DNA from: Methanobacteriota archaeon
Lineage (GTDB): Archaea; Thermoplasmatota; Poseidoniia; Poseidoniales; Thalassarchaeaceae
Reading direction: 5' to 3'
Length of the DNA: 64,000 nucleotides
NCBI GenBank assembly: GCA_002708385.1
Contig: PANM01000013.1
Span: 87,359 to 151,358, forward strand
Shown: positions 4,350 through 57,800 of the stretch, in pieces
Layout of the letters: each line of letters begins with the position of its first letter
How positions within the stretch are numbered: the first letter of the stretch is position 1
The notes under the pieces: generated by a model
What the model saw: the letters and a program-made list of their open reading frames with translations, nothing else
Databases searched by the model: none
Told to the model about the DNA's origin: nothing
Made by a program: the position numbers and the translations under genes

Positions 4350-5615
4350 ATGAGCCTGTTGCTGCTGAATACTGGGCCTATAGCTACCATCGATAATGGT
4401 GATCCAACAATTCCGCTGACCGGCAGCGATATGAGTGATACCGAGACACTCACTCTGCCATCTGGAAATGGGGTATTTATTGAAAATGGTATCATAAAAA
4501 AAATCGAACAATCGGATTGTTTATCTAATGAATTTGGTTCTGAAGATACGAAAGATTTGACTGTAATTGATTGTAATTATCAAGCCATTATACCCGGATT
4601 TGTGGACTCTCATACACATCTATTGTGGGATGGTGATCGCTCTAATGAAATGCAATTACGCCAACAAGGACTTACCTATTCTGATATAGCTAATCTCGGT
4701 GGTGGAATTAACAAAACTGTAGAATTTACCAGAAATGCTCCTCTAGAGAAATTACTTGCTTTGGGTAGAAACCGAATAGAACGAGCAGTAAACCTAGGCA
4801 TTACAACTATCGAATGTAAAAGTGGCTATGGATTGGATATTGAATCTGAAATCAAATTATTAAAAGCCTCGAACATATTATCCGGAACATCGCTTGTAGA
4901 TATTCATTCAACATGGCTAGGGGCTCATGATATTCCCAAAGGTGTGAAGGCTGGAGATTATGTAGAGTCATTAATATCTGAACAATTACCCGCTGTTGTT
5001 GAACAAGGATATGCAAAATATTGCGATGTTTTCTGTGAACCCGGTTGGTTCACTCTAGAACAGACAGAGGACATAGTGAAGGCCGCCAAGACATATGGGT
5101 TTACACCAAGATTACATGTAGACGAATTTGTAGATGGGAATGGATTGCAATTAGCAGCAGAACTAGGTGCCGTCAGTGGCGATCATGTAGGGCACTCTTC
5201 GGATGAAGCCAGAGAATACGCGACCAAATCTGGAACCATGCAAACCTTCCTCCCTGGAACTCCCTATGTTCTTGGCCACCATCTAAATTCCCCATTACGT
5301 CGTTGTGTAGATAATAATTGGCAATTTTCGCTGGCTACGGACTTCAATCCTAATTGTCAAACATTGTCAATTCCTTTTGTAGGTAGTCTGGCTACACATC
5401 GTCTAAACCTAACCCCATTAGAAGCACTCGTGGCTGTAACTCGTAATCCCGCCACTACACTACTGGATTCAACTAATTCACTAGTCCCCGGAAGCATAAG
5501 GGAAGGCGGACCTGCAGATTTACTAATATTGAATTCTCAACACATAGATGCTTGGTGTCAAATGCCAGGGGATAATCCAATCCATCATACAATCAAGTCC
5601 GGCCTCATATTGTAA
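4350..5615 (+). CDS. hutI: Imidazolonepropionase (amidohydrolase superfamily)
   Basis: The metal-ligand motif DSHTHL plus KSGYGLD and downstream His/Asp ligands match HutI. The rest of the histidine-utilisation set lies nearby. Confidence 0.8.
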   Translation: MSLLLLNTGPIATIDNGDPTIPLTGSDMSDTETLTLPSGNGVFIENGIIKKIEQSDCLSNEFGSEDTKDLTVIDCNYQAIIPGFVDSHTHLLWDGDRSNEMQLRQQGLTYSDIANLGGGINKTVEFTRNAPLEKLLALGRNRIERAVNLGITTIECKSGYGLDIESEIKLLKASNILSGTSLVDIHSTWLGAHDIPKGVKAGDYVESLISEQLPAVVEQGYAKYCDVFCEPGWFTLEQTEDIVKAAKTYGFTPRLHVDEFVDGNGLQLAAELGAVSGDHVGHSSDEAREYATKSGTMQTFLPGTPYVLGHHLNSPLRRCVDNNWQFSLATDFNPNCQTLSIPFVGSLATHRLNLTPLEALVAVTRNPATTLLDSTNSLVPGSIREGGPADLLILNSQHIDAWCQMPGDNPIHHTIKSGLIL

Positions 5616-6092
5616 AATAGTTAAGGCTAATACAGAACACCATTTCACAACACGCGATTCCTTATAATTAATTATCAATTTACAACAGTACGTTGGGAGC
5701 CAAACATAGAATGTGACTAAGATTATGTAATTATCATTCCAAACTCGAGCATCTGTGAACTGATAACAGTAGTTATCGGCCTTAGATTAGTAGTCCCACC
5801 TTAACATAGGCTCTCAGTACGACGATTTTTGATTATCAGAGGAAAATTACCAATTCCTCCCTCATAGACGCATTAAAATTTCTCCAATACATCGGAGATA
5901 CATGACAGAAGGAATTTCCGGCTTCTGTATGAAATGTAAACACAGGCGAATCATATCTAATCCGACTAATGTTAAGATGAGTAATGGCCGAATTAGAGTC
6001 ACAGGACATTGTAGCTGGAAAAACTGTGATGGAAAAATTTCCAAGATCATTTCATAGATGGAAGACTAAAGGCAGAATCATTCATTTGGGAG

Positions 6093-6098
6093 AATATA
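6093..6098 (+). promoter_or_regulatory. Putative TATA-like element (AATATA) about 17-22 nt upstream of tRNA-Val
   Basis: An A/T hexamer lies at the expected distance for an archaeal tRNA promoter. A 5-bp leader hairpin GCCCA/TGGGC follows at 6099-6118. Confidence 0.2.
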
Positions 6099-6114
6099 GC
6101 CCACTAAGATATCT

Positions 6115-6190
6115 GGGCTCGTGGTCTAGGGGTTATGACGTCGCCTTGACATGGCGAAGATCGCAGGTTCAATTCCTGCCGAGCCCACCA
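6115..6190 (+). tRNA. tRNA-Val (anticodon GAC) with genomically encoded 3' CCA
   Basis: I folded a full cloverleaf by hand. The acceptor GGGCUCG pairs with CGAGCCC, the D-stem is GUCU/UGAC, and the anticodon stem is UCGCC/GGCGA. The loop is UUGACAU, the T-stem GCAGG/CCUGC, the T-loop UUCAAUU and the discriminator A73. CCA is at 6188-6190. Confidence 0.9.
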
Positions 6191-6208
6191 GATAATTTAT
6201 TTCACCTA

Positions 6209-6934
6209 TTAGTGGTTTTCAAATGTATATGAAAATCTGATTCTACCCTTACCTTTGTTTTTCTTACCAACATATTCAATGAAGGGGATTTTTGCAGTAT
6301 TGTCAACATGGGTACCTGCACATGGGCACAGATCAATGTCTTCTACTTCTACAACTCTTAGTTCCTTAACGGAGGACGGAATTCTGTCCATGAATTTAGT
6401 GTGTCTCATTTGTTCATGTCCCATAATTTGCTCACGTGACCATTGATGGATGTTGACTGGTATGTTTTTACTCAAGATACCATTTACAGTTGACACTAAT
6501 ACATCGGGTTCGAATTGCGATTTATCTTCGAATAGTAAATCTACCCTGGATTTATCAAATGTTAATTGATTCCCGACAGTTTCAGCACCCCAAATATCTT
6601 CGGCTATCGCTGACACAATGTGTTGTGCTGTGTGCATACTTGTGTGTCTATTCCTACGTTCAACATCTATGTGACAGGTAATTAAATCACCCATTTCGAA
6701 AAGGTCTGGTTCCTCAACAGGATGGGCGATCATATCCCCTGAAACTACCTCATGCATTTTCGATTTACTTTCTTTAGATTTGATTATGCCCGTATCCCCA
6801 GGTTGACCTCCCCCCCGAGGGTAGCAATAAGTAGATTTTAGGAATATATTGTCTCCCTGAATATCTACGATTTCCGAAATAAAAGGTTTTGGATTTAGAC
6901 CAGGATGTTGTGTCATATGCATTTTTTCTTGCAT
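6209..6934 (-). CDS. alaX: AlaX-type trans-editing protein (alanyl-tRNA synthetase editing-domain homolog, AlaX-M size)
   Basis: The zinc-binding editing motifs HTAQH and CPCAGTH (CxxxH) are present, at about 240 aa. The track ORF starts with TTG at 6964; the in-frame ATG at 6932-6934 gives MQEKMHM. Confidence 0.7.
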   Translation of the reverse strand: MQEKMHMTQHPGLNPKPFISEIVDIQGDNIFLKSTYCYPRGGGQPGDTGIIKSKESKSKMHEVVSGDMIAHPVEEPDLFEMGDLITCHIDVERRNRHTSMHTAQHIVSAIAEDIWGAETVGNQLTFDKSRVDLLFEDKSQFEPDVLVSTVNGILSKNIPVNIHQWSREQIMGHEQMRHTKFMDRIPSSVKELRVVEVEDIDLCPCAGTHVDNTAKIPFIEYVGKKNKGKGRIRFSYTFENH

Positions 6935-6938
6935 GGAA

Positions 6939-8462
6939 TCACCCAAAAATTTCGTGCGGATCAACCAACAACATCGAATTTGCTAGTGATTGACATTCCT
7001 GACTCATTACTCTATCTCCTTCGAATGGTTCAACATATTTACGAACCCATTTTTTCAAATTAACTACGCCATTTCCGGGTTGAATCGATAATCTTTCTAG
7101 TGATTCTATTGAACAAACCAATTCGTTAGCAATAACTTGAGATAGTAATGTTGTTGATTTTAGAGACCGAAATGTTCCTGTGGCCCCCATTGATACATGA
7201 TCTTCCTTACCCATGCTAACAGGAACATTAGACGTAGTTACTGGGTTCGACAAAAGATGTAATTCTGCTATGCAGGCCGCAGCGACATATTGTACAATCA
7301 TATATCCGCTTTCCAATCCTTCATCAATAGCTAAGAAAGCCGATTGGCCACCCCAATTAGGGTCAAGGACTTGGTTAATTCTACGCTCCGCAATTGATGC
7401 TAGTTCGTGGCACGCAACCGCTATAGAATCACTAGCGAGGGCTAAGTTTTGTCCATGGAAATTACCACCACTGATTATTTCTGAACCATTTTTTCCATAG
7501 AATACTAATGGGTTATCTGTAGCGCTATTGATTTCTATTTTTAGTAACCTTCGAGTCTCAATAGCTATGTCAATTACAGGACCATGGACCTGTGGCACAC
7601 ATCTGAAACAATATGCGTCTTGTACTCTATCACAATCTTCGTGGGATAGTTTAACTTGTGAGTTATGCAAGAATCCAGCGATTCTTGATGCAGATATCAG
7701 TTGTCCTCTCTGAGGCCTATTGTTGTGAATTCGTGGGTCAAAAGGGGAATGAGAACCCCTAATGGCTTCTAATGAACATGCTGCGGAAGCATCTGCGAAC
7801 AGTAATAATCGTTCTAAATTTAACAACGTTAGAGAAAGGTATGTGCACATTTGGCTTGTTCCATTAATCAGTGATAGCCCTTCTTTTGCTTGTAACTTTA
7901 CAGGCTTCAGATTATTTTCGATAAGAATCTCTGAGGTAGGATATTCCTTCCAGCCCGATTTACCCCTAACCAAACAACTTCCTTCCCCAATTAGTCCTAA
8001 GGCCATATGTGACAACGGGGCTAGGTCCCCAGAAGCACCTAATGAGCCAATTCTAGGTATAATTGGGGCGATACCTAGGTTAATCATTTCAATTAGTAAT
8101 TTCACAACCTCTGGTCGAATTCCTGATACGCCTTTTGCTAGTGAATTTGCACGATATACCATCATTAAAAGTACATGTTCAGGGTCCATGAGCTCACCAA
8201 CTCCACAAGCATGACTACGTATCAGGTTAGTCTGTAACTTGGCTAATTCAGTCTCATCAATTTTGACTGAAGACATCGCCCCAAATCCAGTATTTATTCC
8301 ATAAACTACTTGATCAGAATTTACAATCTCCTCCACTACCTGTCTAGATTGCGACATTCTATCGATAGCTTGGTCGCACAGAACTAAAGTGGATTGACCA
8401 ATTGATGCAGAATATGCAGACTCGATAGTGAGTGTTTGACCATCGATTAGAACAGTGGCCAT
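6939..8462 (-). CDS. hutH: Histidine ammonia-lyase
   Basis: The MIO-forming Ala-Ser-Gly triad sits in GASGDLAPLSHMA, at about 507 aa with ammonia-lyase family conservation throughout. Confidence 0.9.
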   Translation of the reverse strand: MATVLIDGQTLTIESAYSASIGQSTLVLCDQAIDRMSQSRQVVEEIVNSDQVVYGINTGFGAMSSVKIDETELAKLQTNLIRSHACGVGELMDPEHVLLMMVYRANSLAKGVSGIRPEVVKLLIEMINLGIAPIIPRIGSLGASGDLAPLSHMALGLIGEGSCLVRGKSGWKEYPTSEILIENNLKPVKLQAKEGLSLINGTSQMCTYLSLTLLNLERLLLFADASAACSLEAIRGSHSPFDPRIHNNRPQRGQLISASRIAGFLHNSQVKLSHEDCDRVQDAYCFRCVPQVHGPVIDIAIETRRLLKIEINSATDNPLVFYGKNGSEIISGGNFHGQNLALASDSIAVACHELASIAERRINQVLDPNWGGQSAFLAIDEGLESGYMIVQYVAAACIAELHLLSNPVTTSNVPVSMGKEDHVSMGATGTFRSLKSTTLLSQVIANELVCSIESLERLSIQPGNGVVNLKKWVRKYVEPFEGDRVMSQECQSLANSMLLVDPHEIFG

Positions 8463-8483
8463 GATGTTGCCGAGTCAGGACCA

Positions 8484-10499
8484 TCAAATAGACTCATCGT
8501 GCATATCAAATAGTCTATCCAATAGATTCCGATCAACTAAATTTGGAATAGTTATGCCAAGTTTATCGTCTAAATCCATGGCCCTTTCAACTGTCCAAAT
8601 GGCCCCCTCATTTCTAGCCCATGAACGCCTAGCTAATCCATTCAAAACATCCCAACTTATCATTGAATTAATTCTACCTTGAGAATCATCTGAACCATCT
8701 ATCAATAATCCAAATCCGCCGTTAATTACTTCCCCCCAGCCTACACCTCCCCCATTGTGTAAACTCGTCCATGTTGCTCCTCTAAACGAATCACCCACAA
8801 AATTCTGAATAGCCATATCGGCAGTGAACATGGAGCCATCCCGAATATTTGCAGTTTCACGATAGGGACTATCGGTACCCCCCACATCGTGGTGATCTCG
8901 GCCAAGAACTATCGGGGCTGAAATTAATCCCTCGCTGATTGCTCTGTTAAAAGCGCTAGCAATCATTGACCGCCCTTTTTCATCAGCATACAAAATTCGG
9001 GCTTTACTACCCACAACCAAATTGTGTTTTTCCGCCTCTAAAATCCAACGAATATTATCCTGATATTGTGTCTCAATTTCATTAGGACAATTACTGGCTA
9101 ATTCTCTAAGTACTTCTACCGCTATTTCATCTGTAATACTGAGATCTTCATCAGAACCTGAAGTGCATACCCATCTGAAAGGACCGAATCCATAATCAAA
9201 GCACATAGGGCCCATGATGTCCTCAACATATGATGGATACTTGAAGGAACCATCTTCTTCAACAATATCTGCATTAGCCCTGCTTGATTCTAGAAGGAAG
9301 GCATTACCATAATCCCAAAAAACTGTACCTCTACTACATAATCGATTAATGCTTTTTACATGTCTTCTAAGAGTACTATGAACCGCTTCTTTGAACTTTT
9401 CAGGATAATTAATCAACAGAGATTTAGATTCAGTTAATGTATAATCTACAGGCATATAACCACCCAGCCACGGATTATGTAAACTGGTTTGATCACTCGC
9501 TAGGTGTGGTGTAAATTCTATTTCTACCATATATTCCAATAAGTCAACTATATTGCCTACATATCCTAATGATACTGCTTCTTTCGATGTGACAGCGGTT
9601 TTAGCCCTCAATATTAAATCATCCAAGTTGTCATAAATCTCGGTCAACCAACCTTGGGAATACCTTTTCTCGGCTACAATAGGGTCAATTTCCGCAATGA
9701 TACATACGGCACCAGCAATAACGGCAGCTTTAGCCTGCGCTCCACTCATTCCACCTAGGCCAGAAGTTACGTAGACAATCCCGCCTAAATCTGAATCGTT
9801 TGGGACATTGAGGTATTTTCTAGCCGCATTCAAGATTGTAATTGTAGTTCCGTGGACAATCCCCTGTGGGCCAATGTACATGTATGAGCCAGCTGTCATT
9901 TGTCCATATTGCGACACCCCTAATGCGTTCATTTTCTCATAATCTTCTTGTGAAGAATAATTAGGAATAACCATTCCATTTGTTACAACCACCATAGGTG
10001 CATCTTTGTTTGATGGAAATAGCCCTAATGGATGGCCAGAATACATAACAAGAGTTTGATTTTCTGCCATTGTTGACAGATATTTCATAGTTAGAAGGTA
10101 TTGAGCCCAATTTTGGAAAACAGATCCATTCGTACCGTATGTGACTAGTTCATGGGGAAATTGTGCGACTTTTGGGTCTAGATTATTTTGTATCATCAAC
10201 ATAATTGAAGCCGCGGAAAGTGATTTTGCATTGTAATGGTGAATTGGTCTTGCATGGATCTCATATTCAGGCCTAAATCGATGCATGTATATGTGACCAT
10301 AATCATTCAACTCATTGAGAAATTCTTTCGATAATTTATCATGCCAATTATCTGGAAAATATCGTAGAGCATTTTCTATTGCAAGTTTTTTCTCAGAGTT
10401 TGACAATACTTGCGGCCTCTTTGGTGCGTGAGGAACTGAATCATCTATTGTGGCTGCAGGAGGTAAATCTCGTGGAATCCCAATTGTGTAATCTATCAT
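8484..10499 (-). CDS. hutU: Urocanate hydratase, long form (671 aa) with about 90-aa N-terminal extension
   Basis: Urocanase core motifs NNLDPKVAQFP, YGQMTAGSYMYIGPQGIVHGT, GLGGMSGAQ, GRDHHDVGGTDSPYRETA and SLHNGGGVGWG are present. N-terminal residues 20-90 (VPHAP...ALRYFP...YGHIYMHRF) go beyond the bacterial enzyme, which is about 557 aa. Confidence 0.9.
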   Translation of the reverse strand: MIDYTIGIPRDLPPAATIDDSVPHAPKRPQVLSNSEKKLAIENALRYFPDNWHDKLSKEFLNELNDYGHIYMHRFRPEYEIHARPIHHYNAKSLSAASIMLMIQNNLDPKVAQFPHELVTYGTNGSVFQNWAQYLLTMKYLSTMAENQTLVMYSGHPLGLFPSNKDAPMVVVTNGMVIPNYSSQEDYEKMNALGVSQYGQMTAGSYMYIGPQGIVHGTTITILNAARKYLNVPNDSDLGGIVYVTSGLGGMSGAQAKAAVIAGAVCIIAEIDPIVAEKRYSQGWLTEIYDNLDDLILRAKTAVTSKEAVSLGYVGNIVDLLEYMVEIEFTPHLASDQTSLHNPWLGGYMPVDYTLTESKSLLINYPEKFKEAVHSTLRRHVKSINRLCSRGTVFWDYGNAFLLESSRANADIVEEDGSFKYPSYVEDIMGPMCFDYGFGPFRWVCTSGSDEDLSITDEIAVEVLRELASNCPNEIETQYQDNIRWILEAEKHNLVVGSKARILYADEKGRSMIASAFNRAISEGLISAPIVLGRDHHDVGGTDSPYRETANIRDGSMFTADMAIQNFVGDSFRGATWTSLHNGGGVGWGEVINGGFGLLIDGSDDSQGRINSMISWDVLNGLARRSWARNEGAIWTVERAMDLDDKLGITIPNLVDRNLLDRLFDMHDESI

Positions 10500-10502
10500 T
10501 CA

Positions 10503-11126
10503 CTACCACCCTAGACGGTTTGTAAATATACTATTGATTTCAATTATTGTATTGTTGCATTGATTCAATTTGTGAACGCATTTCTCATCTAAATCTGACT
10601 TTGCATCCCCTTCCAGATATTGTGTATTGATTTTCACGTTGTAAGCTGCTATTTTAGCAGACGCCAATGCCAATTCAGAAGCCGAAGCTAGGTCGGTTAG
10701 TGCATTTACATTACAATTTGGAACTAGTGTAGAAATAGTTTTCAAAAGAATACAAGCATAATCTAAGATCTCTAAGGGGGCTGATGCCGCACCAATTGTA
10801 GCCTCCGTTATCGCTTTTTTCTTGGTCATTGCATCAGTATCCTTGGGTAATCTATATGCATTCATAACTTCATCAAAGGCCAATGCATCATTTTGCGCTA
10901 ACCGGATTGAAAATCCTAAATTAGCATCTTCGGATTCTATAATTTTATTTGCAATGTCGTGGCCATCTATCCATTTTTCACTTTTAACAGTTAATCTGGC
11001 AACCATTATCGTGAGTGCATGAGCATGGGCTAATGTGAGGCCAGCCACAGAACCCCCACCAGGAGTGGGCGCCGAAGAAGAAATTGAATCTAAGACATCC
11101 CTGTAACCATCATTCAATGTGATCAC
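10503..11126 (-). CDS. Formiminotetrahydrofolate cyclodeaminase (stand-alone FTCD C-domain)
   Basis: The cyclodeaminase signature APTPGGGSVAGLTLAHAHAL is present. It overlaps the upstream transferase gene by 17 nt. Confidence 0.75.
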   Translation of the reverse strand: MITLNDGYRDVLDSISSSAPTPGGGSVAGLTLAHAHALTIMVARLTVKSEKWIDGHDIANKIIESEDANLGFSIRLAQNDALAFDEVMNAYRLPKDTDAMTKKKAITEATIGAASAPLEILDYACILLKTISTLVPNCNVNALTDLASASELALASAKIAAYNVKINTQYLEGDAKSDLDEKCVHKLNQCNNTIIEINSIFTNRLGW

Positions 11127-12156
11127 CTCTAATTGCCCACTCGATTATATTCGAATTAGGGTCAAAATCTTCTAGTTTGTTTAACATCAATCCGTTAATG
11201 GCATAATCTACTAATTCCTGTTCACTAGCGTCCGGATTATTTCCATAATGCTGCCCGGCGGCAAGAATTGCTTCCAGTGGGACTAATCCAACCAATTCAG
11301 AAGAAATTGCCTGTAACCCTAATTTGGATGCTTCAATTCTTATAGCATCCGTAACCTGATGTAAGCCTGTCGAGTTAAAATCTAGTAAATTCATGGATAC
11401 TTGGGCAGTTTTGTCGTCATACATCCATCCTGCTGCCTGCAGATTAGAAAATATCCCGGGTTGCCTCAATGGTTTACCATTTGCATCTTTAATGGTACTT
11501 CCTTCTTCATCTTTAATAAGGTGACCACTAGTTCTAATTTTTCCAGCGATTTGATTAGCTTGTGATTTGTTGTCGGTATTCAAATTCACATTGTATGCTA
11601 TCAATAAATTTCGTCCACCAGTAGCTGTAACTCCCATTTTAGGAGTGAATTGACTTGGTCCATAATCAGGTTTCCATTCTGGTTGGGATAGTTTATCTTG
11701 AAATCCTTCATATTCCCCTCTTCGTATATCCGGTAATCTAACTCTTTGAGTTAATTTGGCAGATTCGGCATAGAGATAAATGGGTAGGTTATGTTTGGTA
11801 GAAATCGCCTTACCATAACGATGAGACAAGTCTACACAATCATCCATAGATACGTTACTTATGGGTATGAATGGAACCACATCAACTGCTCCCATTCTAG
11901 CGTGTTCCCCAGAATGCATTGTCATATCGATTAATTCTAATGCTATTGATGTACATTGAACCACAGTATCAAGTACAGATTCGGGATCACCTACCATGGT
12001 TACTACAGTTCGATTGAAATCCACTCCCATATCAATATCTAATAGCGTGACTCCTTCATTATCGAGTATTGGTTGAATTATTCTGTCGATTATTGTTTTA
12101 TCCCTACCCTCACTAAAGTTCGGTACACATTCAACCAAACGGGACGTCATCAGCAT
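11110..12156 (-). CDS. ftcD: Glutamate formimidoyltransferase (FTCD N-domain homolog)
   Basis: The hallmark N-terminus VECVPNFSEGRD is present, at about 348 aa. Confidence 0.85.
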   Translation of the reverse strand: MLMTSRLVECVPNFSEGRDKTIIDRIIQPILDNEGVTLLDIDMGVDFNRTVVTMVGDPESVLDTVVQCTSIALELIDMTMHSGEHARMGAVDVVPFIPISNVSMDDCVDLSHRYGKAISTKHNLPIYLYAESAKLTQRVRLPDIRRGEYEGFQDKLSQPEWKPDYGPSQFTPKMGVTATGGRNLLIAYNVNLNTDNKSQANQIAGKIRTSGHLIKDEEGSTIKDANGKPLRQPGIFSNLQAAGWMYDDKTAQVSMNLLDFNSTGLHQVTDAIRIEASKLGLQAISSELVGLVPLEAILAAGQHYGNNPDASEQELVDYAINGLMLNKLEDFDPNSNIIEWAIRGDHIE

Positions 12157-44070: not shown

Positions 44071-44413
44071 CAGCTAACTTGCGTTCGTATTCCAAGGCTG
44101 CTTGTTGAGCAATCACAGTCATGTCAGTGGCTGTGGCACCTTCCATGCCACGCCTGATTACTCGGGTATTGGCATCGGTAGCACGAGTAAATGGTTCCCA
44201 AACACCGCCTGAAAATTTATGACCGCATTTTTTGCATTCCCATATACCTGCTACTTGACGCGTTACCTTTTGGTAATGGCATACCGGACATGTATAATTT
44301 CGAGACTTCTTCTTTAGCGCTGCCCCTGCCCTTCTTCGTACACTTACACCATATCGTGAACCATACTTTGCAGTAGCACCGAGTTTTTGAGTTCTCTTTG
44401 CCATTTCACTCAC
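44039..44413 (-). CDS. rpl37ae: Ribosomal protein eL43 (L37ae) with acidic C-terminal extension
   Basis: Zinc ribbon CPVCHYQKV...CKKCGHKF is present. It is about 30 aa longer than usual, ending in EENVSDEEE. Confidence 0.8.
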   Translation of the reverse strand: MSEMAKRTQKLGATAKYGSRYGVSVRRRAGAALKKKSRNYTCPVCHYQKVTRQVAGIWECKKCGHKFSGGVWEPFTRATDANTRVIRRGMEGATATDMTVIAQQAALEYERKLAGEENVSDEEE

Positions 44414-45200
44414 CTTCTAATTTTTCGTTCACTAAATCTCGGAGTTCGGCACATCTTGAGCGGGCCTCATCCATGATGTCAGCGAATTCGGCGGCCGTGA
44501 AGATTCCCTTTAGACCCTTCTGCAATGAATGGACGTGATCATCATCACCCAAGGTTATGTGTATCCTTTCATCACCACCGAGTTCTTCTCTCTTGTCGGC
44601 ATCATATACAAATCTGCCACCGACCTTATGGTAAGAACACATTATAGGAGTCTTGGATACCTCTAATGGCATATCTTCTCCAACTTCAAATCTCTCAGCA
44701 GGGACAGTTGCACTGCGAAGAGCAGCAATTGCTGCAAGTCCAAATGCATCGAATAAATTACCATCATCCGATACTGCAAATACGTCAAGGATAACCTGCC
44801 AAGCTTTTTCTCCCGGAATGATGCACAAATCTTCGGTATTAATACAACCTGATTCCCTAATTCCCCTGTCCACAACTCGACCAAGTTCGATCGATTCGGC
44901 ACTAGGCGGTCCTGCTTCCCAATTTCTACCGGCTACCGGTCTGACTTCAGCACTGCACATGAGACCGCCTTCATTAGGTCGGTCGGGGTAAGGTGTCATG
45001 ATCTGAAATTTGACGCCAGCTAATACAATAGTGTCCCCCATTCTTACTCTAGCTGAACCCTCTGCACGTGGTAGACAATTGATTTCTAATTCTACATCTC
45101 GTCCTTCAAATCTCTGACGACCGTCATGCCTCTTGTCTTCGAGTGCTAATTCTGCTAGATGAGAGCGTAGTAATTTAGGCACTAATGGTATGCTCATCAT
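44406..45200 (-). CDS. rrp42: Exosome complex component Rrp42
   Basis: RNase PH-like fold at 264 aa, in the conserved order after Rrp41. Confidence 0.8.
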   Translation of the reverse strand: MMSIPLVPKLLRSHLAELALEDKRHDGRQRFEGRDVELEINCLPRAEGSARVRMGDTIVLAGVKFQIMTPYPDRPNEGGLMCSAEVRPVAGRNWEAGPPSAESIELGRVVDRGIRESGCINTEDLCIIPGEKAWQVILDVFAVSDDGNLFDAFGLAAIAALRSATVPAERFEVGEDMPLEVSKTPIMCSYHKVGGRFVYDADKREELGGDERIHITLGDDDHVHSLQKGLKGIFTAAEFADIMDEARSRCAELRDLVNEKLEGE

Positions 45201-45913
45201 TCATCGCCTCCCTTTAGCGCTCTAACCATCTCTTCATGTATCACCTTAGCAGCTTCCATATTGTAGTCCCATGCTTCTTGGAATTGTTCAGGAGATAAGT
45301 CTCCATCCATCTGTAAGAAAACTAATTCGCCAGTATTCGGCAAAATACCCATTGGTAGATCTGCTTCACCATAATTGTCCTCTTCTTTGTTGAGGTCACA
45401 AACTACTATGTCGTGAACTTTTCCACTAGCAACTGAAACCACCATATCAGTCATCGGAATTCCTGCATGAGCAAGGGCGACGGATGCTGCAGTTATTCCC
45501 GCACATCGTGTACCAGCTTCAGCACAAATAATCTCTATTTCAACTCGGATTTTACTTCTTGGATAAAGTTCCGTAAGTACAACACTCTCCAATGCTTCTG
45601 CAGTTACTTTCGAAATTTCTCTACTTCGGCGATTAAATCCAGGTCGGATTCTGTCAGTGGTTGAAAACGGCGCCATATTATACCGGACGTCTAAGACGGC
45701 CCTATCTTGCCGTTGGATCTTTCTCGGGTGGGCTTCCATTGGCCCGTATACTGCAGCAATGCAGTCATTCAGTCCCCAGCGAATTCTTGCTGAACCGTCG
45801 GCTACTGGAATAACTCCTGTTTCTATTGATACCGGACGAACCTCATCTTTTGTTCTACCATCTAGGCGTATTCCGTTATCATCTATACACTGTACATCTC
45901 CATATCCGCCCAT
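45197..45913 (-). CDS. rrp41: Exosome complex exonuclease Rrp41 (RNase PH family)
   Basis: RLDGRTKDEVRP, a phosphate-binding arginine motif, and GTRCAGITAASVAL. Confidence 0.85.
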   Translation of the reverse strand: MGGYGDVQCIDDNGIRLDGRTKDEVRPVSIETGVIPVADGSARIRWGLNDCIAAVYGPMEAHPRKIQRQDRAVLDVRYNMAPFSTTDRIRPGFNRRSREISKVTAEALESVVLTELYPRSKIRVEIEIICAEAGTRCAGITAASVALAHAGIPMTDMVVSVASGKVHDIVVCDLNKEEDNYGEADLPMGILPNTGELVFLQMDGDLSPEQFQEAWDYNMEAAKVIHEEMVRALKGGDE

Positions 45914-46629
45914 CAGGCATCACCTCCAAATTCTTCTACCTTAGCTTCGGTTAGTAAAGCGTTTAATCGATCTCTGGCATTAATGATACCATCTAGGTCA
46001 CCATCAATCCAAACGCGACCATTGTCACCAGCAACTACTCTACATTCTGTATCTTCCTTGAGTTGGCGTAGATTATTTCCACCTCGGCCGATTAGTCTAC
46101 CGAGTAAGTGTGGATCAATTTCTTCAACGCTTCCAGAGCGAATTGCGCGCAGACCCATGCCTTTCATCGTCACAACGCTAGAATGATTTTCTTCTACTTC
46201 TTGAACGCGGCATAGAATAGCATCTCCAATATCCAGAACCTTTCTTATTCCACCGAATTCAGCCTTAGAAGGACCGAGACTCATTGGTAAAATAGCGTTG
46301 AAAGGTGCTCCGATATCGATGAACCAGATATTACTGGTACAACCTTCGATATATCCTATCACCAAATCGCTAGGCCGGGGCACATAGGATGTGCGCCGTG
46401 GCTCTATCGAGACGGTACCGCCCCGATTGTTCATTCTTCCTTGCTTCAAAGCACGAAGTCGGCCGTTAATGGCCAGGACACCGTGTCCTGCTTCGTACTC
46501 CCCAGAATCGCCTAGGTCGTCCCCAGGGGCGACAAGCAGGGGTGCTTGTCGGGATCTACGCGGTCCGTCCGCGCCATTGTCTCCACTCATGTTATCGAGC
46601 CGCGCGACCGACCCACCATTCATAACCAT
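45913..46629 (-). CDS. rrp4: Exosome RNA-binding subunit Rrp4 (N-terminal domain, S1, KH)
   Basis: The N-domain VAPGDDLG is followed by an S1 domain and the KH GXXG motif LIGRGGNNLRQL. The first about 85 codons are unusually GC-rich. Confidence 0.8.
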   Translation of the reverse strand: MVMNGGSVARLDNMSGDNGADGPRRSRQAPLLVAPGDDLGDSGEYEAGHGVLAINGRLRALKQGRMNNRGGTVSIEPRRTSYVPRPSDLVIGYIEGCTSNIWFIDIGAPFNAILPMSLGPSKAEFGGIRKVLDIGDAILCRVQEVEENHSSVVTMKGMGLRAIRSGSVEEIDPHLLGRLIGRGGNNLRQLKEDTECRVVAGDNGRVWIDGDLDGIINARDRLNALLTEAKVEEFGGDA

Positions 46630-46665
46630 ATATGCTCACACCTACGGTGTGTCTAAAGATGAAAA

Positions 46666-47373
46666 CTAATCCAATTCCTTCACATCAAGGCCTGAGCTTC
46701 TTTTTGCCACCCTACTTATCAAATCTGATTTCATACCACCAGGACATTCTACAACGCAAGCCCACGAACCATCGGCCAACCACTCTTCCCTTTGAATAGA
46801 GTCTCTAATCAATTGGTACACACCACCGTAATCCTTACCTTGAATTCTAAAAGCCAATCTAACAGTAATAAATTGAAGTGGAATTAATGCTCTTATTGCA
46901 TCTACAGCATTCTGAACCTGGCGCTCAACCGACAGAAATGGATCCACACTAAAACGAGCCTCAGCAAGTGCATTTTCGATTCTAGTTGGTGGATGTGGAC
47001 CTCGTGTTTTTGGATCGGTGGCTGTAGTAGCGATTGCATTAACGATTTGTTTCCGTTTTGTTTCTACCATTTTTTTCCTTTGAACAGTCGTTAATTGAAT
47101 AGTGCCTTCTCTGAGGATTTTATCAACGCATACGATTAATTCAACACTACCAAAGATATTCTCTAACGCATCAGAAGTGGGGCGGTCACCTGATTTAACA
47201 TCTGACCAAACTTCATCTGTAGCCAACAAATCTTCAATGATAACAGCATCATTATTCTCTTTCCACTGTGCTACCAGTTCCGGGTCTACAAGAATCTCGA
47301 AGCGATTCCCGCCTTTCTCGAGACGGGCTATGACAGCATCATCGAGACTAACCATGAATCGGGAGGGAGACAT
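46666..47373 (-). CDS. sdo1: SBDS-family ribosome maturation protein
   Basis: N-terminal FYSH domain conservation, ARLEKGGNRFEI. Confidence 0.85.
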   Translation of the reverse strand: MSPSRFMVSLDDAVIARLEKGGNRFEILVDPELVAQWKENNDAVIIEDLLATDEVWSDVKSGDRPTSDALENIFGSVELIVCVDKILREGTIQLTTVQRKKMVETKRKQIVNAIATTATDPKTRGPHPPTRIENALAEARFSVDPFLSVERQVQNAVDAIRALIPLQFITVRLAFRIQGKDYGGVYQLIRDSIQREEWLADGSWACVVECPGGMKSDLISRVAKRSSGLDVKELD

Positions 47374-47406
47374 TAGCCCTTAGAACAATCGGGATGAGAT
47401 TCCCAA

Positions 47407-48117
47407 TTAGTTAAGCTTGGTTAGGTGTGAAAGTGTGGCTTCTTTGTCCAATTTTGTGTATCCATTTCCGTCTACAACAGCAATCTCCACAGCATCGTGG
47501 TTCAAATCTTCTTCGATTGAATCCCTGAGGGCTTCCAAGCCCATCTTTATCGCTGCATTTTGTGTCATGTTTTCTTTCCATTTCGATTCAAAATGGTCTA
47601 TTACGGTTGAACGGCCACGACCAATAGCACCGGCGTGGTATGACTGATACGCACCTGATGGGTCTGTCTCAAACAGATGCACACCATCAGCGTCAACACC
47701 TGCGATTAACAATGCTGTACCAAAGGGTCTTGCTCCACCATATTGTGTGAATGATTGCATGTAATCACACATTTTTTTGACAAGTGTAGTTACAGGTATA
47801 GCGTCTCCATAAGTCATCCGGTTAACTTGACATTGAACTCGAGCTCTGTCAACCAGTTGTCGAGCATCTGCAACTAGTCCAGAAGTTGTGAACCCAACAT
47901 GATTGTCGATTTGGTACATCTTTTCGATAGAATCAATGATTACCAATTTACTGGAAATTCTTTTGTCGACAATTAATACAACTCCATCACGAAATTTTAG
48001 ACCAACTGTTGTTGTGCCTCTTTTTACTGATTCACGAGCATACTCTACTTGGTATAGACGTCCGTCTGGTGAAAAGGTCGATACTCCATGGTCATATCCT
48101 CGTCCGCTCGGCTGCAT
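47407..48117 (-). CDS. psmA: Proteasome alpha subunit
   Basis: YDHGVSTFSPDGRLYQVEYA N-terminus, about 236 aa. I trimmed the start to the ATG at 48115-48117. Confidence 0.9.
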   Translation of the reverse strand: MQPSGRGYDHGVSTFSPDGRLYQVEYARESVKRGTTTVGLKFRDGVVLIVDKRISSKLVIIDSIEKMYQIDNHVGFTTSGLVADARQLVDRARVQCQVNRMTYGDAIPVTTLVKKMCDYMQSFTQYGGARPFGTALLIAGVDADGVHLFETDPSGAYQSYHAGAIGRGRSTVIDHFESKWKENMTQNAAIKMGLEALRDSIEEDLNHDAVEIAVVDGNGYTKLDKEATLSHLTKLN

Positions 48118-48264
48118 TACAATCGTAATTCTCCTGAGCCGGCCTCTTATCAACCTTGACCGCAATGCTGTCTGGTGATTTGCAGAATGGTATAACCTGA
48201 AATTTACAAGATCGGGATTTAGTTGAATAGGCTAATTGATTGCTAGGGACTAGTTCGGAAGTCC

Positions 48265-53790: not shown

Positions 53791-54844
53791 GTTAATTCCT
53801 CGAGGAGACCGAAGAGGGCATCATATTTACGAGTTGATGGCCACAGTCAATCCAATGGAAGAGCCTATTGGCGCGGGTTTGGCGGCATTAGCCGAGTCAT
53901 TAGGGACTTCGAGTGAGGCGCTTAGGTTACTAATTGGAAGCATTGGAATGTTGCTTTTGGCACTATCATTTGCAAGGTCTAATGATAATTGGTCGGGTAA
54001 AATAGCCGCAATAGGATGGATTCTTCTAGGTTTGTTCTTCTATCTTCTTTCAGATTACTATGTCAAACTTGGAGATCCTGTTTTGGTAATAATGACCGCT
54101 GGAGCATTACCAGGCGGATTATTCTTAGCATGGTTTGAAACCGTAGGGAAATCAGAAACGTCATTTGAGACTAATCAATCACTAGTATGGTTCAGAGGAA
54201 TGGTAGCATGGTCAATGATTCCGTATCAGATTGTATATTGTGTGCCTTATTTGAATATCGCATTTGTAATGATGACAGCCCATAGTGCTGAATGGATGTT
54301 AGAGTTTGTTGGACTTGGGTCTTATACAATGGGCGAAGTCATGGTTGACCTTCGTGATGGAGATCAAGTTCCATTAAGTGAATGGGATGGAAGTATGCTA
54401 CTTCTAACTCAACCCCTTGGGGATGGGGGATTCTTCATCCCAATGTATCATTCAACAGGTGAAGAAGTAGGAATCGGATTCATTTTGAGTTGTTCAGGAC
54501 TACAATCAATGATCATTTTTGTAGGAGCAATTGTAGCACTTCAAACAGTGCCTTGGAATAGAAGGATTCGGGGTTTGCTGATTTCTGTGCCGACTATTCA
54601 TATCCTTAACACATTCAGGAATGCAGGAATAGTTTGGTTAGAGGTTAATTACCACAATTGGGAGTTTTTAGGTTTGAACATGTTTGACTTTTCTCATAGT
54701 TATGCCGCTAAGGCTGCTAGCCTATTCGCGATGTTTTTGATGGCAATAGCTCTGTTCGACCTTCTACCTGAATTACACAAAAATATAATGCAATTATTAC
54801 CAAAGAAATTACGAGGGAAATCAGATTCTTCAACGACTTCGTAA
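53789..54844 (+). CDS. Archaeosortase/exosortase-family integral membrane protein
   Basis: 8-9 TM helices. A candidate active-site Cys (ILSCSGLQS) and conserved Arg (NTFRNAG) are spaced as in EpsH/ArtA. Confidence 0.45.
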   Translation: MLIPRGDRRGHHIYELMATVNPMEEPIGAGLAALAESLGTSSEALRLLIGSIGMLLLALSFARSNDNWSGKIAAIGWILLGLFFYLLSDYYVKLGDPVLVIMTAGALPGGLFLAWFETVGKSETSFETNQSLVWFRGMVAWSMIPYQIVYCVPYLNIAFVMMTAHSAEWMLEFVGLGSYTMGEVMVDLRDGDQVPLSEWDGSMLLLTQPLGDGGFFIPMYHSTGEEVGIGFILSCSGLQSMIIFVGAIVALQTVPWNRRIRGLLISVPTIHILNTFRNAGIVWLEVNYHNWEFLGLNMFDFSHSYAAKAASLFAMFLMAIALFDLLPELHKNIMQLLPKKLRGKSDSSTTS

Positions 54845-57800
54845 TCTTTCGTAGAATTTTCCTTTCAATGGCATATCATGTTCCCAGGCAAATTCTTTCA
54901 TTACCCTCAAGGCCTCTTTTTCCAAATCAGAATCGCCTACAAAATCGGTAATGCGAATTACCCCCTCCCTTGTGTTTGCCTTGAATGCCGCAATTGGTTC
55001 TTCTCTATGGAATACAAGGTACGCCGAACCATAACCAAACCTTTCTCTCAATAGACTGCCATAATAATGTATCAATGGATCTGATGGAGGGATGACTAAA
55101 TCACGAGTTCTACTTAAACCATCTGAACCATCTAGCAAATCATGCCTACCCCAACATACATCATGCATATCATCAACAAGGAAACCTTTGATCAATGTAC
55201 CATCTTCTTCGAATTCTCGCATTACATCAGAAATTTCTTCAGCAGAGAAGGGCGACCCTGCCAACCTTTCGACTTGTTTTAGAGTAATAACAGGAAAATC
55301 TTTGACTAAATCTCTTAGGAAGTCACGTTTTACTTCCCATAAATCAGACGAAGATATTGGTTCAACTGCTTTGAACCCTCCACGATAATCTTGCACTAAG
55401 TGTCCACTACGAACTAAGGGTGAAATCAGTTTTCGAAATTCCCCTCTCTTCATAGCGTGACGTTCCATGAAAATTGAAGGGTCATGATGTTCTCTGAAAA
55501 ACTGTAGAATTTCCTCGTCTTCTTCTGGAGGTTGAATATTTCGAATTGTCAATAATTTTTGGAAATGAAGCATCTTCGCCCAAACAAGGTGCCCCCTCAA
55601 ATTTGTACCTTGGTGTAATTGATGAGCCGCAGCCATTGACTTGAGGTCAACCCTGAACATTTCACAACGACCTCGGAGGGCAAAGTCATCCCTTAATTCG
55701 TCTAAGTGGTCGAGAGCTAAAGTTTCATTTTCATGACGGGTTTTCTGATGTAATGAATGGTGATGGAAGAGAATTCGATTAATCTTCTTTCTAGGCATTG
55801 GGTCTACTATTCCGCCCCTAATGTATCGCTCTCCATCACCCATAGATTCGAAACCGAGATCTGAGAGAATCTGCTGCACATTTTCATCACATTCGTGAAC
55901 GGGGACTCCGTTGAACGCGTGAATAACTGATACATCGATTAACCTATCACGATAATTTTCTAATAATTCGTCGAATGTGGTTTTGAATTCATCGAGATAA
56001 GAATGTGGGATATTGATATCCTTGATTTCAAGGTAATCATTAACCACGAACATCAATATTCTCCCAACCGGATCTACACCCTTGAATACCGGATGATACC
56101 AGCCTTGCTTGAGCATTAGTCGGACTTCTTGAATAAAGCGTGAACAGAATGGATCTGATTGAGAAACTATTCTCATTTTGCGATCTTCTGCCATAGGAGA
56201 GAGGAGTTTTTCAGCATCTTCGTGGCTGGAATAATAATCCGTAGGGTCTGGCTGTAATGCAACTACCCGAGCAATTTTTCCAGCATTTTCTAAGTCACGT
56301 AGAGTTTCAGCCAACTCCTCAACTGGTCGCGATACAAAGAATCTCAGTGTATGTAGTCTAACTGGTCCGATTCTTTCGATTAGTGTTTTTACCGCCTCAT
56401 CAAAATTCATCGGTTTAACCCTATCATGGATTTTATGGAATACTGCAAGTGAGCGTTTCCTATTCGGCAGTTCAATGTATTTTTTGCCGATAATTAACTG
56501 CCTCTCTAAATTTGATAGAGCACTCTTCAATGACCTTTGAATGTGAGCATTTTCTTTGCCCTTGGGATAACCATCGAATAATTCGATTCGACTCATACCT
56601 TCCTTAGGTATCTTCTCTAGTAATTCCTCCTCTAGGGGCCCTATCCAAGGGTCTCCCCTTAGACCAAGAACCAGTGGCAACTGGTCGTCCATTGTGTAAC
56701 CAACTCGATTGTGTAACAAACGCCCATTGACTACATCAGGATCGTGTTTGATATCTTTCCAATCACGGAATCTGTAATCTTTAACTCGATGTAACATCTC
56801 ATCTCTTCTTTGAACTAAAATCAGATTTCTAATCGCATCAGCAGGCTCATCATATTGAGTAAATGATTTATGTAAAATCAAAGTTTGCAGAGTTCGATAA
56901 TCTACAACTTCGACTTGACCACCGGTGATCCTATACTCATCAACACGGAGGATGTATTCCCCATCTTCGGTTTGGGTAAAGAATCCAATAGAGACTAAAT
57001 TCCTCATTTCTAATTCCTGTAAAACCGATTCAACTTGACCACGCGGGAATGGTAATCTACTGGCGAGTTTATCCAATGTCCGGGGGCCTTCTGAGCCCAA
57101 CATGTCCAATAATTTCAACCTGAGACAATCCATAGGATCAGACAGATAAGTTTCTTTCCAATTAGCCGGTTTTCCATCCTTGTAGTCCACTCCCATATCA
57201 AAGGTCAGACCACCGGTGTAGAGAGCCCTAAGGTCATCCATTTCATCAGCACCGGAAGCTGCAAGGCATCCCAGAGTTCCGTGTACTCCAGCCATCCTTT
57301 CTGAGAACCACTTGTCATCGATTTGTTCTAACCCGGTATTCCGGACCTTGGTAATCAAACCCCGCTCTGCCAATTCGTAAACCCATTCTCTAAGTTGTTC
57401 GAATTCTACATCTTTCAACTTCTCAGAATAAAGCGGATGAGTTAGTGATTTTTCTAGCCCACCTCCCATATCCATAAGTCTCAATAATCCAGAAGGAGAA
57501 TCTGGAACTGCTACCTTATCTTGGTAATACTGAGCTAATCTTTCTCGGTCTAAGTCGGTAGCAAGTGACCTAGCTCCCAGCAATCGCCGCAAAATTTCTG
57601 GATCTATATCTTTGATAAGATAGGCTCGAGTTCTTAGACTGAGCAAATCTTCGAAAGAGGACATGAATAATGTCATTCCAAGTGGCGATGGCATCTTCAC
57701 TTTACGATGAACAATTCGTACGTTTTCACTGTCCATTCTTGAGATGAAATCAGCCAATTCCTTCATTTCTAAATCGAAATTCATAATTTCATTCATGGCT

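Follow-up and report, generated by a model that had tools for sequence, protein, structure and literature searches.

The analyzed 64-kb stretch of DNA (hereafter, the window), which comes from a Marine Group II archaeon (Poseidoniales), contains a complete hut cluster that consists of hutH, hutU, hutI, ftcD, and a cyclodeaminase gene and is conserved across Poseidoniales (Table 1). The hutU gene encodes a 671-aa protein; the ORF starts with ATG and, in agreement with the initial annotation, lies exactly at the coordinates given in Table 1, and the strings quoted in that annotation, SVPHAPKRPQVLSNSEKKLAIENALRYFP...YGHIYMHRFRPEYEIHARP, are present in it. The genes are tightly packed, with hutH beginning 21 nt downstream of hutU and hutI located 2.9 kb from hutU, a relative position that is matched in Poseidoniales loci. 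The HutH, HutI, and FtcD proteins each score above the respective NCBIfam cutoff. The putative Shine-Dalgarno-like motif GGTGG falls inside the 3' end of the gene upstream of hutU. The order PAN-FtcD-CD-HutU-HutH-AlaX-HutI is kept in at least six loci (HutU identity 66–75%), and the nearest named relatives are Ca. Thalassarchaeaceae.

Table 1 Features of the hut locus, in window coordinates
Feature	Coordinates	Strand	Evidence
hutI, imidazolonepropionase, 421 aa	4350..5615	+	TIGR01224, 324.9 bits (cutoff 298)
hutH, histidine ammonia-lyase, 507 aa	6939..8462	-	Pfam Lyase_aromatic; TIGR01225, 550.7 bits (cutoff 539)
hutU, long-form urocanate hydratase, 671 aa	8484..10499	-	ORF list; three Pfam domains; TIGR01228; PDB 6UEK
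Urocanase_C domain, residues 434-638	8586..9200	-	Pfam PF17392, E 1.1e-81; invariant R442, D535, R547
NAD-binding Rossmann-like domain (Urocanase), residues 210-428, motif GLGGMSGAQ	9216..9872	-	Pfam PF01175, E 3.6e-74
Urocanase_N domain, residues 81-207	9879..10259	-	Pfam PF17391, E 3.6e-54; invariant Y121, T202
N-terminal extension, residues 1-78, not present in short forms	10266..10499	-	alignment to 1x87, 2v7g
Formiminotetrahydrofolate cyclodeaminase-domain protein, 207 aa	10503..11126	-	Pfam FTCD_C, E 1.5e-40
Shine-Dalgarno-like GGTGG (putative), 6 nt upstream of hutU ATG	10506..10510	-	read from sequence
ftcD, glutamate formimidoyltransferase, 348 aa	11110..12156	-	Pfam FTCD_N + FTCD; TIGR02024, 350.7 bits (cutoff 221)

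All three urocanase Pfam domains are present in HutU, in the canonical order (E-values from 1e-54 to 1e-81), and the protein scores 406.3 bits against TIGR01228, the hutU equivalog model, above the cutoff of 375; the margin is modest because short forms dominate this model. Long and short urocanases share 102 invariant alignment columns, including the NAD motif GLGGMSGAQ (residues 247–255), where G247 through Q255 are invariant in both forms except for the x position. None of the 63 long and short urocanases in the alignment deviates at residues Y121, T202, R442, D535, or R547, which correspond to Y52, T133, R362, D443, and R455 of the Pseudomonas putida enzyme, reportedly its active-site residues (Kessler et al. 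2004). The counterpart of P. putida E44 is Q113 in HutU, and Gln occupies this position in 55 of the 61 long forms. The top Foldseek match of the HutU model is 6UEK, the urocanate hydratase of Trypanosoma cruzi (TcUH) with NAD+; the overall superposition of the AF2 model on this structure is moderate (TM 0.65), which probably reflects domain orientation. At the sequence level, residues 4–665 of HutU align with residues 11–677 of the 681-aa TcUH (823 bits, E 2e-246, ~56% identity). TcUH shares with the window HutU the extension at the N-terminus, the insertions within the protein, and the C-terminal tail, and it binds NAD+; unlike the window HutU, it is a eukaryotic protein encoded by a monocistronic gene. 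According to PMC12203737, the activity of TcUH (PDB 6UEK; Boreiko et al. 2020, cited therein) has been experimentally confirmed, and formiminoglutamase is the last enzyme of the pathway in T. cruzi; the window cluster encodes FtcD and cyclodeaminase instead. By homology to TcUH, HutU is predicted to convert urocanate and water to 4-imidazolone-5-propionate with bound NAD+. Relatives are already annotated as urocanate hydratase by NCBI, and the window ORF is an ordinary long-form (UROC1-type) urocanase of histidine degradation, that is, a member of a known enzyme class.

The short-form enzymes (P. putida 1UWK/2V7G, Bacillus subtilis 2FKN, Geobacillus 1X87, Legionella 7JFZ; 546–563 aa) share with the window HutU the three-domain catalytic core, the NAD motif, and the active-site positions but are only 35–37% identical to it and lack residues 1–78, the insertions 232–235, 412–416, and 460–474, and the C-terminal tail. 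Alignments with the short bacterial urocanases in the PDB (546–563 aa) start only at query residue 72–98, and the extension has no equivalent in 1x87 or 2v7g. Compared to the P. putida enzyme, HutU contains ~69 additional N-terminal residues, 23 internal, and 22 C-terminal ones; the extension reported in the initial annotation is real, but the size given, about 90 aa, was slightly high (about 70–78 being closer), because the N-terminal excess over P. putida is only ~69 residues. The extension comprises an extended arm (residues 1–33, with the motifs GIP..LP and V(P/S)HAPKR) followed by helices 34–45 and 50–67 (motifs NALRYFP and YGHIYMxRFRP). It is 44–60% identical to the N-termini of bacterial, vertebrate, and T. 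cruzi urocanases, with 24 invariant columns (44% for narwhal UROC1 over the extension only); residues 7–89 are conserved among homologs from all three domains of life, and residues 21–78 show 58–59% identity across the domains of life, the level of the Rossmann domain. The extension is ordered in the 6UEK crystal (659 columns aligned to the 660-residue chain), and AF2 pLDDT is 81–95 across residues 1–100. When the extension alone (90 aa) was used as the query against a library of 50%-identity representatives, 624 cluster representatives were retrieved at E≤1e-3, of which 237 reached E≤1e-10, far beyond chance, mostly short metagenomic fragments; the ten longer matches that were looked up included Acidobacteriota and vertebrate members.

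The resemblance of the extension to the N-terminus of animal UROC1, which had been noted in the initial annotation, proved to be homology, as indicated by the end-to-end alignment with 6UEK and the identity to vertebrate UROC1; alignment with the P. putida enzyme and with vertebrate UROC1 sequences (narwhal, lungfish, axolotl, and lizard) relates the extension to the eukaryotic N-terminus and shows that it is absent from the short forms. We read the extension as an integral, ordered element of HutU that is subject to strong purifying selection; together with the small internal insertions and the C-terminal tail, it defines an old, highly conserved long urocanase subclass. Most likely, the arm and the two helices pack on the core or on a partner subunit. 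A minor point that may be of interest to specialists is that the extension is conserved like the catalytic domains although, in the Pfam search of HutU, no model matches residues 1–80.

The length of about 555 aa that the initial annotation attributed to bacterial urocanases holds for the Pseudomonas and Bacillus enzymes but does not extend to bacteria in general: at least 597 prokaryotic species-representative genomes code for the extension, as detected with patterns (NALRYF and YG[HR]IYM[YH]R) that were derived from a four-sequence alignment, favor Bacteroidota-like and archaeal forms, and would miss the Acidobacteriota (NALRYVP) and Bacillota-type (NALRYIP) proteins. The long forms are 665–690 aa in length, and among the matches listed, 70 of the 80 are bacterial, mostly from Bacteroidota, cultured isolates included. 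Given that this listing covers 80 of the at least 597 genomes, further archaeal phyla may also have long forms. Additional bacterial long forms come from Acidobacteriota and Myxococcota and from a deep lineage of Bacillota/Izemoplasmatales, bringing the number of bacterial phyla to at least four. Identity to the window HutU is 59–65% for bacterial long forms and 56–62% for eukaryotic ones. The Bacteroidota enzymes (665–690 aa; for example, those of Mariniphaga anaerophila DSM 26910, Aquimarina longa SW024, Sphingobacterium, Algoriphagus, and Chryseobacterium) have an extension like that of the window HutU and, at 59–65%, show the highest identity of any non-archaeal group. Their hutU genes, too, are clustered with other hut genes, namely hutH and hutI and, in Bacteroidales, additionally ftcD, but the gene order (HutH-HutI-HutU, or FtcD...HutU-HutH-HutI) differs from that in the window, and the neighboring Hut proteins are 30–42% identical. 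The Bacillota/Izemoplasmatales-type enzymes (Acholeplasmataceae, Ca. Xianfuyuplasma coldseepsis; ~670 aa) possess an extension with V.RAPKR and NALRYIP but form a separate deep clade (100%) and are only 47–50% identical to the window HutU. Among the sampled eukaryotes, the long form is the only form of urocanase found, at ~665–700 aa (677–678 aa in vertebrates, close to the ~676 aa cited for UROC1 in the initial annotation). The eukaryotic urocanases (for example, those of Ambystoma, Protopterus, Branchiostoma, Dictyostelium, Capsaspora, Pythium; 56–62% identity) are of the same length class and architecture as the window HutU but comprise a clade of their own, with no specific kinship to the archaeal clade. 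A literature search on the distinction between long and short urocanases, and on 6UEK, found nothing directly relevant.

Phylogenetic trees were constructed by neighbor-joining from corrected p-distances, with bootstrapping and with two truncated short forms as the only outgroup. The long forms comprise one clade (100% bootstrap), apart from the short forms, within which the window HutU belongs to a Poseidoniales subclade (99–100%) and the eukaryotes are monophyletic (93–94%). At its base, the long-form clade splits into a Bacillota-type clade and a clade of the remaining long forms (each 100%), with bacteria present on both sides. In the main long-form clade, the branching order of archaea, eukaryotes, Bacteroidota, Acidobacteriota, and Myxococcota is weakly supported, at bootstraps of 14–57%. 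An exclusive clade of archaea and eukaryotes was recovered in 1 of 200 replicates and, in a second tree, in 1% of 150 replicates; with three further settings, the sister group of the eukaryotes was purely archaeal in no more than 2% of the replicates. The comparison of long and short forms envisaged in the initial annotation thus yields a single long-form clade but no specific link between archaea and eukaryotes.

The distribution of the long form requires some inter-domain transfer, and bacteria are the likely source; the direction is a parsimony argument because the trees are neighbor-joining ones, with two truncated outgroups and a weakly supported inner order. We read the Poseidoniales gene as a bacterial acquisition because the diversity of the long form is greatest in Bacteria, which are found on both sides of the basal split. 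The HutH, HutI, and FtcD proteins are only 30–42% identical to their counterparts in bacterial loci, compared to ~62% for HutU, so that no donor of the whole cluster was identified among the sampled bacteria. Within Poseidoniales, hutU is best read as ancient and vertically inherited, given the synteny, the 99–100% clade, and the lack of a GC anomaly.

Several alternatives bear on the identity and integrity of the gene. The Pfam domains of HutU start at residue 81, and the short-form alignments start at about residue 79–95, which might suggest that the extension is an annotation artifact, with the true start near residue 80–90 and the upstream part untranslated; a wrong start near residue 90 had been raised in the initial annotation and, on checking, is not the case. 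The likelihood of such an artifact is virtually nil: the extension, residues 7–89 in particular, is conserved among bacteria, vertebrates, and T. cruzi to the same extent as the Rossmann domain, is ordered in 6UEK, and is confidently predicted by AF2; furthermore, the ATG at 10499 is directly preceded by an in-frame TGA and separated by 3 nt from the stop of the upstream gene, with a Shine-Dalgarno-like motif nearby, and the sole internal Met before M100 is M72, within the conserved YGHIYMHRFRP. Nor is HutU likely to be a paralog with a different substrate specificity, for instance, a hydratase of thiourocanate or S-methyl-thiourocanate from ergothioneine catabolism. Thiourocanate-type hydratases do match the query and have the same fold, but the curated cutoffs argue against this identity, which we consider extremely improbable: HutU scores 289.5 bits against NF058530 (cutoff 930) and 331.7 bits against NF058531 (cutoff 880), far below both, in contrast to its score above the TIGR01228 cutoff; hutU lies between hutH and ftcD/hutI, and TcUH, the closest characterized relative, is a urocanase. 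The 63–65% identity of HutU to Bacteroidota enzymes could also raise the suspicion that the hut cluster is a bacterial fragment misjoined to archaeal sequence or a very recent transfer. There is next to no chance of this, however, because archaeal genes tightly flank the cluster on both sides (PAN immediately upstream, AlaXM and Kae1 downstream), with aEF-2, an exosome/SBDS/proteasome-alpha operon, and diphthamide synthase encoded in the same window; an identical protein in an identical arrangement is present on an independent Tara Oceans contig; the arrangement recurs in many Poseidoniales MAGs (HutU identity 66–94%); the GC content of the cluster (0.39–0.41) is the same as that of the flanks; and the closest bacterial homolog is no nearer than 65%.

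The remaining alternative concerns origin. The initial annotation proposed that the eukaryotic enzyme architecture either has an archaeal origin or reflects inter-domain transfer; some transfer is required by the distribution, but an archaeal origin or a transfer between archaea and eukaryotes finds no support, with the joint clade recovered in ~1% of replicates and the long form widespread in bacteria. In its full form, the archaeal scenario holds that the long form arose in Archaea, was inherited vertically by eukaryotes, is ancestral in Poseidoniales, and reached bacteria by transfer. The extension is indeed common to the archaeal and eukaryotic enzymes, and the deep branches within the main long-form clade have poor support. 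Nevertheless, this scenario appears very unlikely considering how rarely the trees recover either the exclusive clade of archaea and eukaryotes or a purely archaeal sister group of eukaryotes, and given that bacterial long forms span at least four phyla and both branches of the fully supported basal split. Moreover, the Poseidoniales-type gene order is retained, in full or in part, at 9 of the 10 archaeal-labeled loci found, the tenth (L027) being without it, and Poseidoniales, as Thermoplasmatota, are no close relatives of the Asgard lineage tied to the origin of eukaryotes. Taken jointly, we are fairly confident that HutU is a long-form urocanase operating in a complete hut pathway, with an integral extension, and that Poseidoniales obtained their copy from bacteria and eukaryotes obtained theirs independently.

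Under this bacterial-acquisition scenario, hutU would have been captured from bacteria once, before the radiation of the order Poseidoniales, and inherited vertically thereafter, whereas eukaryotes would have gained their long-form copy independently of Poseidoniales. In the clustered histidine-to-glutamate pathway, HutH would convert histidine to urocanate in the first step; HutU, as the second enzyme, would produce 4-imidazolone-5-propionate, with tightly bound NAD+ serving as the electrophile; HutI would open the imidazolone ring; and FtcD together with the cyclodeaminase would hand the formimino group to tetrahydrofolate. On Marine Group II, the literature search yielded no directly relevant paper dealing with histidine or urocanate.

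The importance of these findings is small, in that they correct a plausible-sounding lead. Because animals and trypanosomes are already known to have this type of urocanase and many bacteria have it as well, finding it in a marine archaeon is uninformative with respect to the origin of eukaryotes: the "metazoan-like" N-terminus is not a eukaryogenesis signal but the mark of an old long-form subclass with a solved structure, 6UEK. A second minor point that specialists may find of interest is the cluster for histidine catabolism in Poseidoniales, which is complete, conserved, and linked to tetrahydrofolate and fits the proteolytic lifestyle of these archaea (PMC6461757).

The minus-strand open reading frame (ORF) taken by the initial annotation for a urocanase is borne out: the ORF listing of the window gives a frame starting with ATG that includes the peptide strings quoted there. 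Pfam detected three Urocanase domains (see the table) and no domain match in residues 1–80. Against the NCBIfam equivalog model for hutU (TIGR01228), the protein scores 406 bits (cutoff 375). Thiourocanate and S-methyl-thiourocanate hydratase identities were rejected, both models scoring far below their own cutoffs, and the protein does not conform to the criteria for thiourocanate hydratase; judged by sequence, it agrees in every testable respect with urocanate hydratase and with the long-form (UROC1-type) subclass. The possibility that the N-terminal extension results from a misplaced start, the true one lying near residue 90, was examined and the annotated start found correct: an in-frame TGA directly precedes the ATG at 10499, the TAG of the upstream cyclodeaminase gene lies 3 nt before this ATG, a GGTGG motif is located 6 nt upstream of it, and residues 7–89 are conserved (44–60% identity, with 24 invariant columns) with an Acidobacteriota protein, other bacterial-type proteins, narwhal UROC1 and the Trypanosoma cruzi enzyme.

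Coordinates of the features discussed (window positions unless a locus is named; residues in HutU numbering)
Feature	Position	Strand	Residues	Length
hutU	8484..10499	-		671 aa
Urocanase domain (Pfam)			81-207	
Urocanase domain (Pfam)			210-428	
Urocanase domain (Pfam)			434-638	
Segments only in long form			1-78, 232-235, 412-416, 460-474, 641-671	
Codon of Q113	10161-10163	-	113	
hutH	6939-8462	-		
AlaXM-like ORF, TTG start	6209-6964	-		251 aa
Proteasome/exosome superoperon	44406-48165	-		
Lhr-type helicase ORF	54830-60121	-		1763 aa
Long-form hutU of Lewinellaceae MAG JADJWX010000028.1	L065:6001-8502			851 aa

Compared with the Pseudomonas putida urocanase, HutU has about 69 residues more at the N-terminus, 23 more in the interior and 22 more at the C-terminus. 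In a sequence search of the PDB, alignments with the short bacterial enzymes (1x87, 2v7g/1uwk, 2fkn, 7jfz, 7ned and 8q9v; 546–563 aa) begin only at query residues ~72–98; 6uek (681 aa), identified by Foldseek as T. cruzi urocanate hydratase with NAD+, released in 2020, matches residues 4–665 with 823 bits. This alignment from residue 4, together with the presence of narwhal UROC1 in the conserved set, supports the proposed homology of the extension to the N-terminus of eukaryotic UROC1. With a query of 90 residues covering the extension only, the matches at E ≤ 1e-3 numbered 624 cluster representatives; 237 of them reached E ≤ 1e-10. The extension is not a loosely attached tail: residues 21–78 are as conserved between domains of life (58–59% identity) as the Rossmann domain (56–58%). 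AlphaFold2, run with a 30-sequence alignment, predicts an extended arm (residues 1–33) followed by helices 34–45 and 50–67, with block-mean pLDDT of 81–95 across residues 1–100. The extension region is also ordered in the 6UEK crystal, where chain A has 660 modelled residues and the query aligns with it over 659 columns. A putative structural role of the extension, then, would be that of an arm and a helical pair packed on the core domain or on a partner subunit.

The catalytic core of HutU is intact: across long and short forms, 102 alignment columns are invariant, among them GLGGMxGAQ and the P. putida positions Y52, T133, R362, D443 and R455, which we take to be active-site residues. Q113 of HutU corresponds to P. 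putida Glu44 (E44), a position occupied by Gln in 55 of 61 long forms and by Met (including T. cruzi), Lys or Leu in the others; this may reflect a mechanistic difference between the two forms.

The premise that bacterial urocanases are about 555 aa long does not hold. When the extension-only alignment was run against a single genome for each prokaryotic species, at least 600 stretches were obtained, 597 of these confirmed; the 80 loci listed, among at least 597 confirmed, comprise 70 bacterial ones and 10 archaeal metagenome-assembled genomes (MAGs), with complete ORFs of mostly 659–703 aa. The bacterial loci listed are mainly from Bacteroidota (Flavobacteriales, Sphingobacteriales, Saprospiraceae, Cytophagales, Bacteroidales and Chitinophagales) and include cultured strains (Aquimarina longa, Mariniphaga anaerophila DSM 26910, Sphingobacterium spp., Algoriphagus spp. 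and Pseudofulvibacter geojedonensis) and one Myxococcota-labelled MAG. Long forms also occur in Acidobacteriota (680 aa) and, as a more divergent lineage of ~670 aa with 47–50% identity to HutU, in Acholeplasmataceae, Izemoplasmatales, Ca. Xianfuyuplasma and other Bacillota. The eukaryotic relatives of the T. cruzi enzyme (665–733 aa) come from trypanosomes, Amoebozoa, many animal phyla, Capsaspora and an oomycete, so the long form is the general eukaryotic form. In the Lewinellaceae MAG, the long-form ORF carries a ~180-residue in-frame insert in the Rossmann-like domain that strongly matches Pfam DUF559 (E = 9e-36), presumably a Vsr/restriction-endonuclease-like domain, and more weakly REase_MTES_1575; either an assembly error or a mobile endonuclease that has entered the enzyme gene may account for it. 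Three Bacillota-type homologues, P0409 (863 aa), P0410 (794 aa) and P0424 (768 aa), exceed their relatives by 100–190 residues and may be fusions or contain insertions.

HutU is 59–65% identical to bacterial long forms, 56–62% to eukaryotic ones and 35–37% to short forms. The initial annotation had called for a phylogeny of the two forms, and neighbor-joining trees were built from Kimura-corrected distances (63, then 68 sequences; 663 columns), rooted with two short forms. Bootstrap support was 100% for all long forms together, for the Bacillota-type clade and for all other long forms, 99–100% for the Poseidoniales core (14 of 15 archaeal sequences), 94% for core Bacteroidota and 93–94% for eukaryotes. 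An archaeal origin of the eukaryotic enzyme architecture, one of the two explanations offered initially, found no support: an exclusive archaeal-eukaryotic clade was recovered in 1 of 200 replicates and in 1% of 150, and a purely archaeal sister group of eukaryotes in at most 2% when gamma-corrected distances, or only columns shared with short forms, were used. Bootstraps were only 14–57% for the relative placement of the archaeal, eukaryotic, Bacteroidota, Acidobacteriota and Myxococcota lineages inside the main clade. The most parsimonious scenario is a bacterial origin of the long form, given that bacteria lie on both sides of the basal split and carry the long form in at least four phyla, and that the archaeal sequences belong essentially to a single clade at the level of an order; in this scenario, whose direction is inferred, one ancient transfer led into the Poseidoniales stem and the eukaryotic copy arose independently. 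Transfer from bacteria to Poseidoniales is consistent with a published estimate that puts the bacterial contribution to the genes of Group II/III euryarchaea at 29.7% (PMC4122925). Between Poseidoniales and Bacteroidota (window 4350–12156 against loci L003–L081), identity is ~62% for HutU vs 37–42% for HutH, 30–35% for HutI and 38–41% for FtcD, reflecting either unusually slow evolution of the long-form urocanase or different histories of the cluster genes.

Two loci stand apart. In 'Methanobacteriota archaeon AW_metabat.40' (L027, JAAZUV010000091.1), HutU-HutH lacks the upstream PAN-FtcD-CD (CD, cyclodeaminase-domain protein), HutH is only 43% identical to that of the window, and HutU joins the archaeal clade in only 42–50% of bootstraps; the contig, labelled archaeal, may come from a different archaeal lineage, reflect a second acquisition or be misbinned. 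In a MAG labelled Parvularcula sp. (L071, PAIP01000040.1), HutU falls among Flavobacteriia-type sequences and the HutH-HutI-HutU order is Flavobacteria-like, both of which point to a misbinned contig from Bacteroidota and not to a long form in alphaproteobacteria.

'Urocanate hydratase' is the routine annotation of the subclass in Poseidoniales, Bacteroidota, Acidobacteriota and Bacillota genomes, the subclass already has a crystal structure, and the exact HutU sequence is already in public data, so a specialist would find no surprise in it. Our literature search found no publication explicitly discussing the long/short dichotomy of urocanases or its evolution; a carefully made phylogeny might be worth a brief publication.

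The host is a Marine Group II archaeon (Poseidoniales). The window also codes for PAN, Kae1, aEF-2, diphthamide synthase and an archaeal exosome/SBDS/proteasome-alpha operon, and GC around hutU (0.39–0.41) is the same as in the flanks. An identical HutU with the same neighbors is present on a Tara Oceans metagenome contig, and the closest named relatives (75% identity), 'Candidatus Thalassarchaeaceae archaeon' and 'Thermoplasmatota archaeon', are annotated by NCBI as urocanate hydratase. The classic archaeal superoperon (proteasome alpha, SBDS, Rrp4, Rrp41 and Rrp42) has GC of 0.445–0.453 vs ~0.40 elsewhere in the window. In the very large Lhr-type helicase, DEAD, Helicase_C, WH_Lhr and DEAD_assoc are confined to the first ~815 residues, with a weak DprA_WH match near residue 1000; Pfam gave no confident domain in the ~900 C-terminal residues.

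In the window, ftcD (glutamate formimidoyltransferase), the cyclodeaminase-domain gene (a Pfam FTCD_C match), hutU and hutH form a tight same-strand array, with hutI 2.9 kb away on the opposite strand; hutH, hutI and ftcD exceed the curated NCBIfam cutoffs. The AlaXM-like ORF and the 3' end of hutH share 26 nt. On the identical public contig the AlaXM-like product has 241 aa, so the true start is probably about 10 codons downstream of the TTG. Together, hutH, hutU, hutI, ftcD and the cyclodeaminase make up a complete histidine-to-glutamate route, with transfer of the formimino group to tetrahydrofolate. At least six archaeal loci, with HutU proteins 66–75% identical to that of the window, keep the PAN-FtcD-CD-HutU-HutH-AlaX-(HutI) order, and the cluster is therefore old within Poseidoniales. 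Although two Marine Group II genomics papers contain no mention of histidine or urocanate, this histidine-catabolic cluster agrees with the description of Poseidoniales as degraders of amino acids (PMC6461757).
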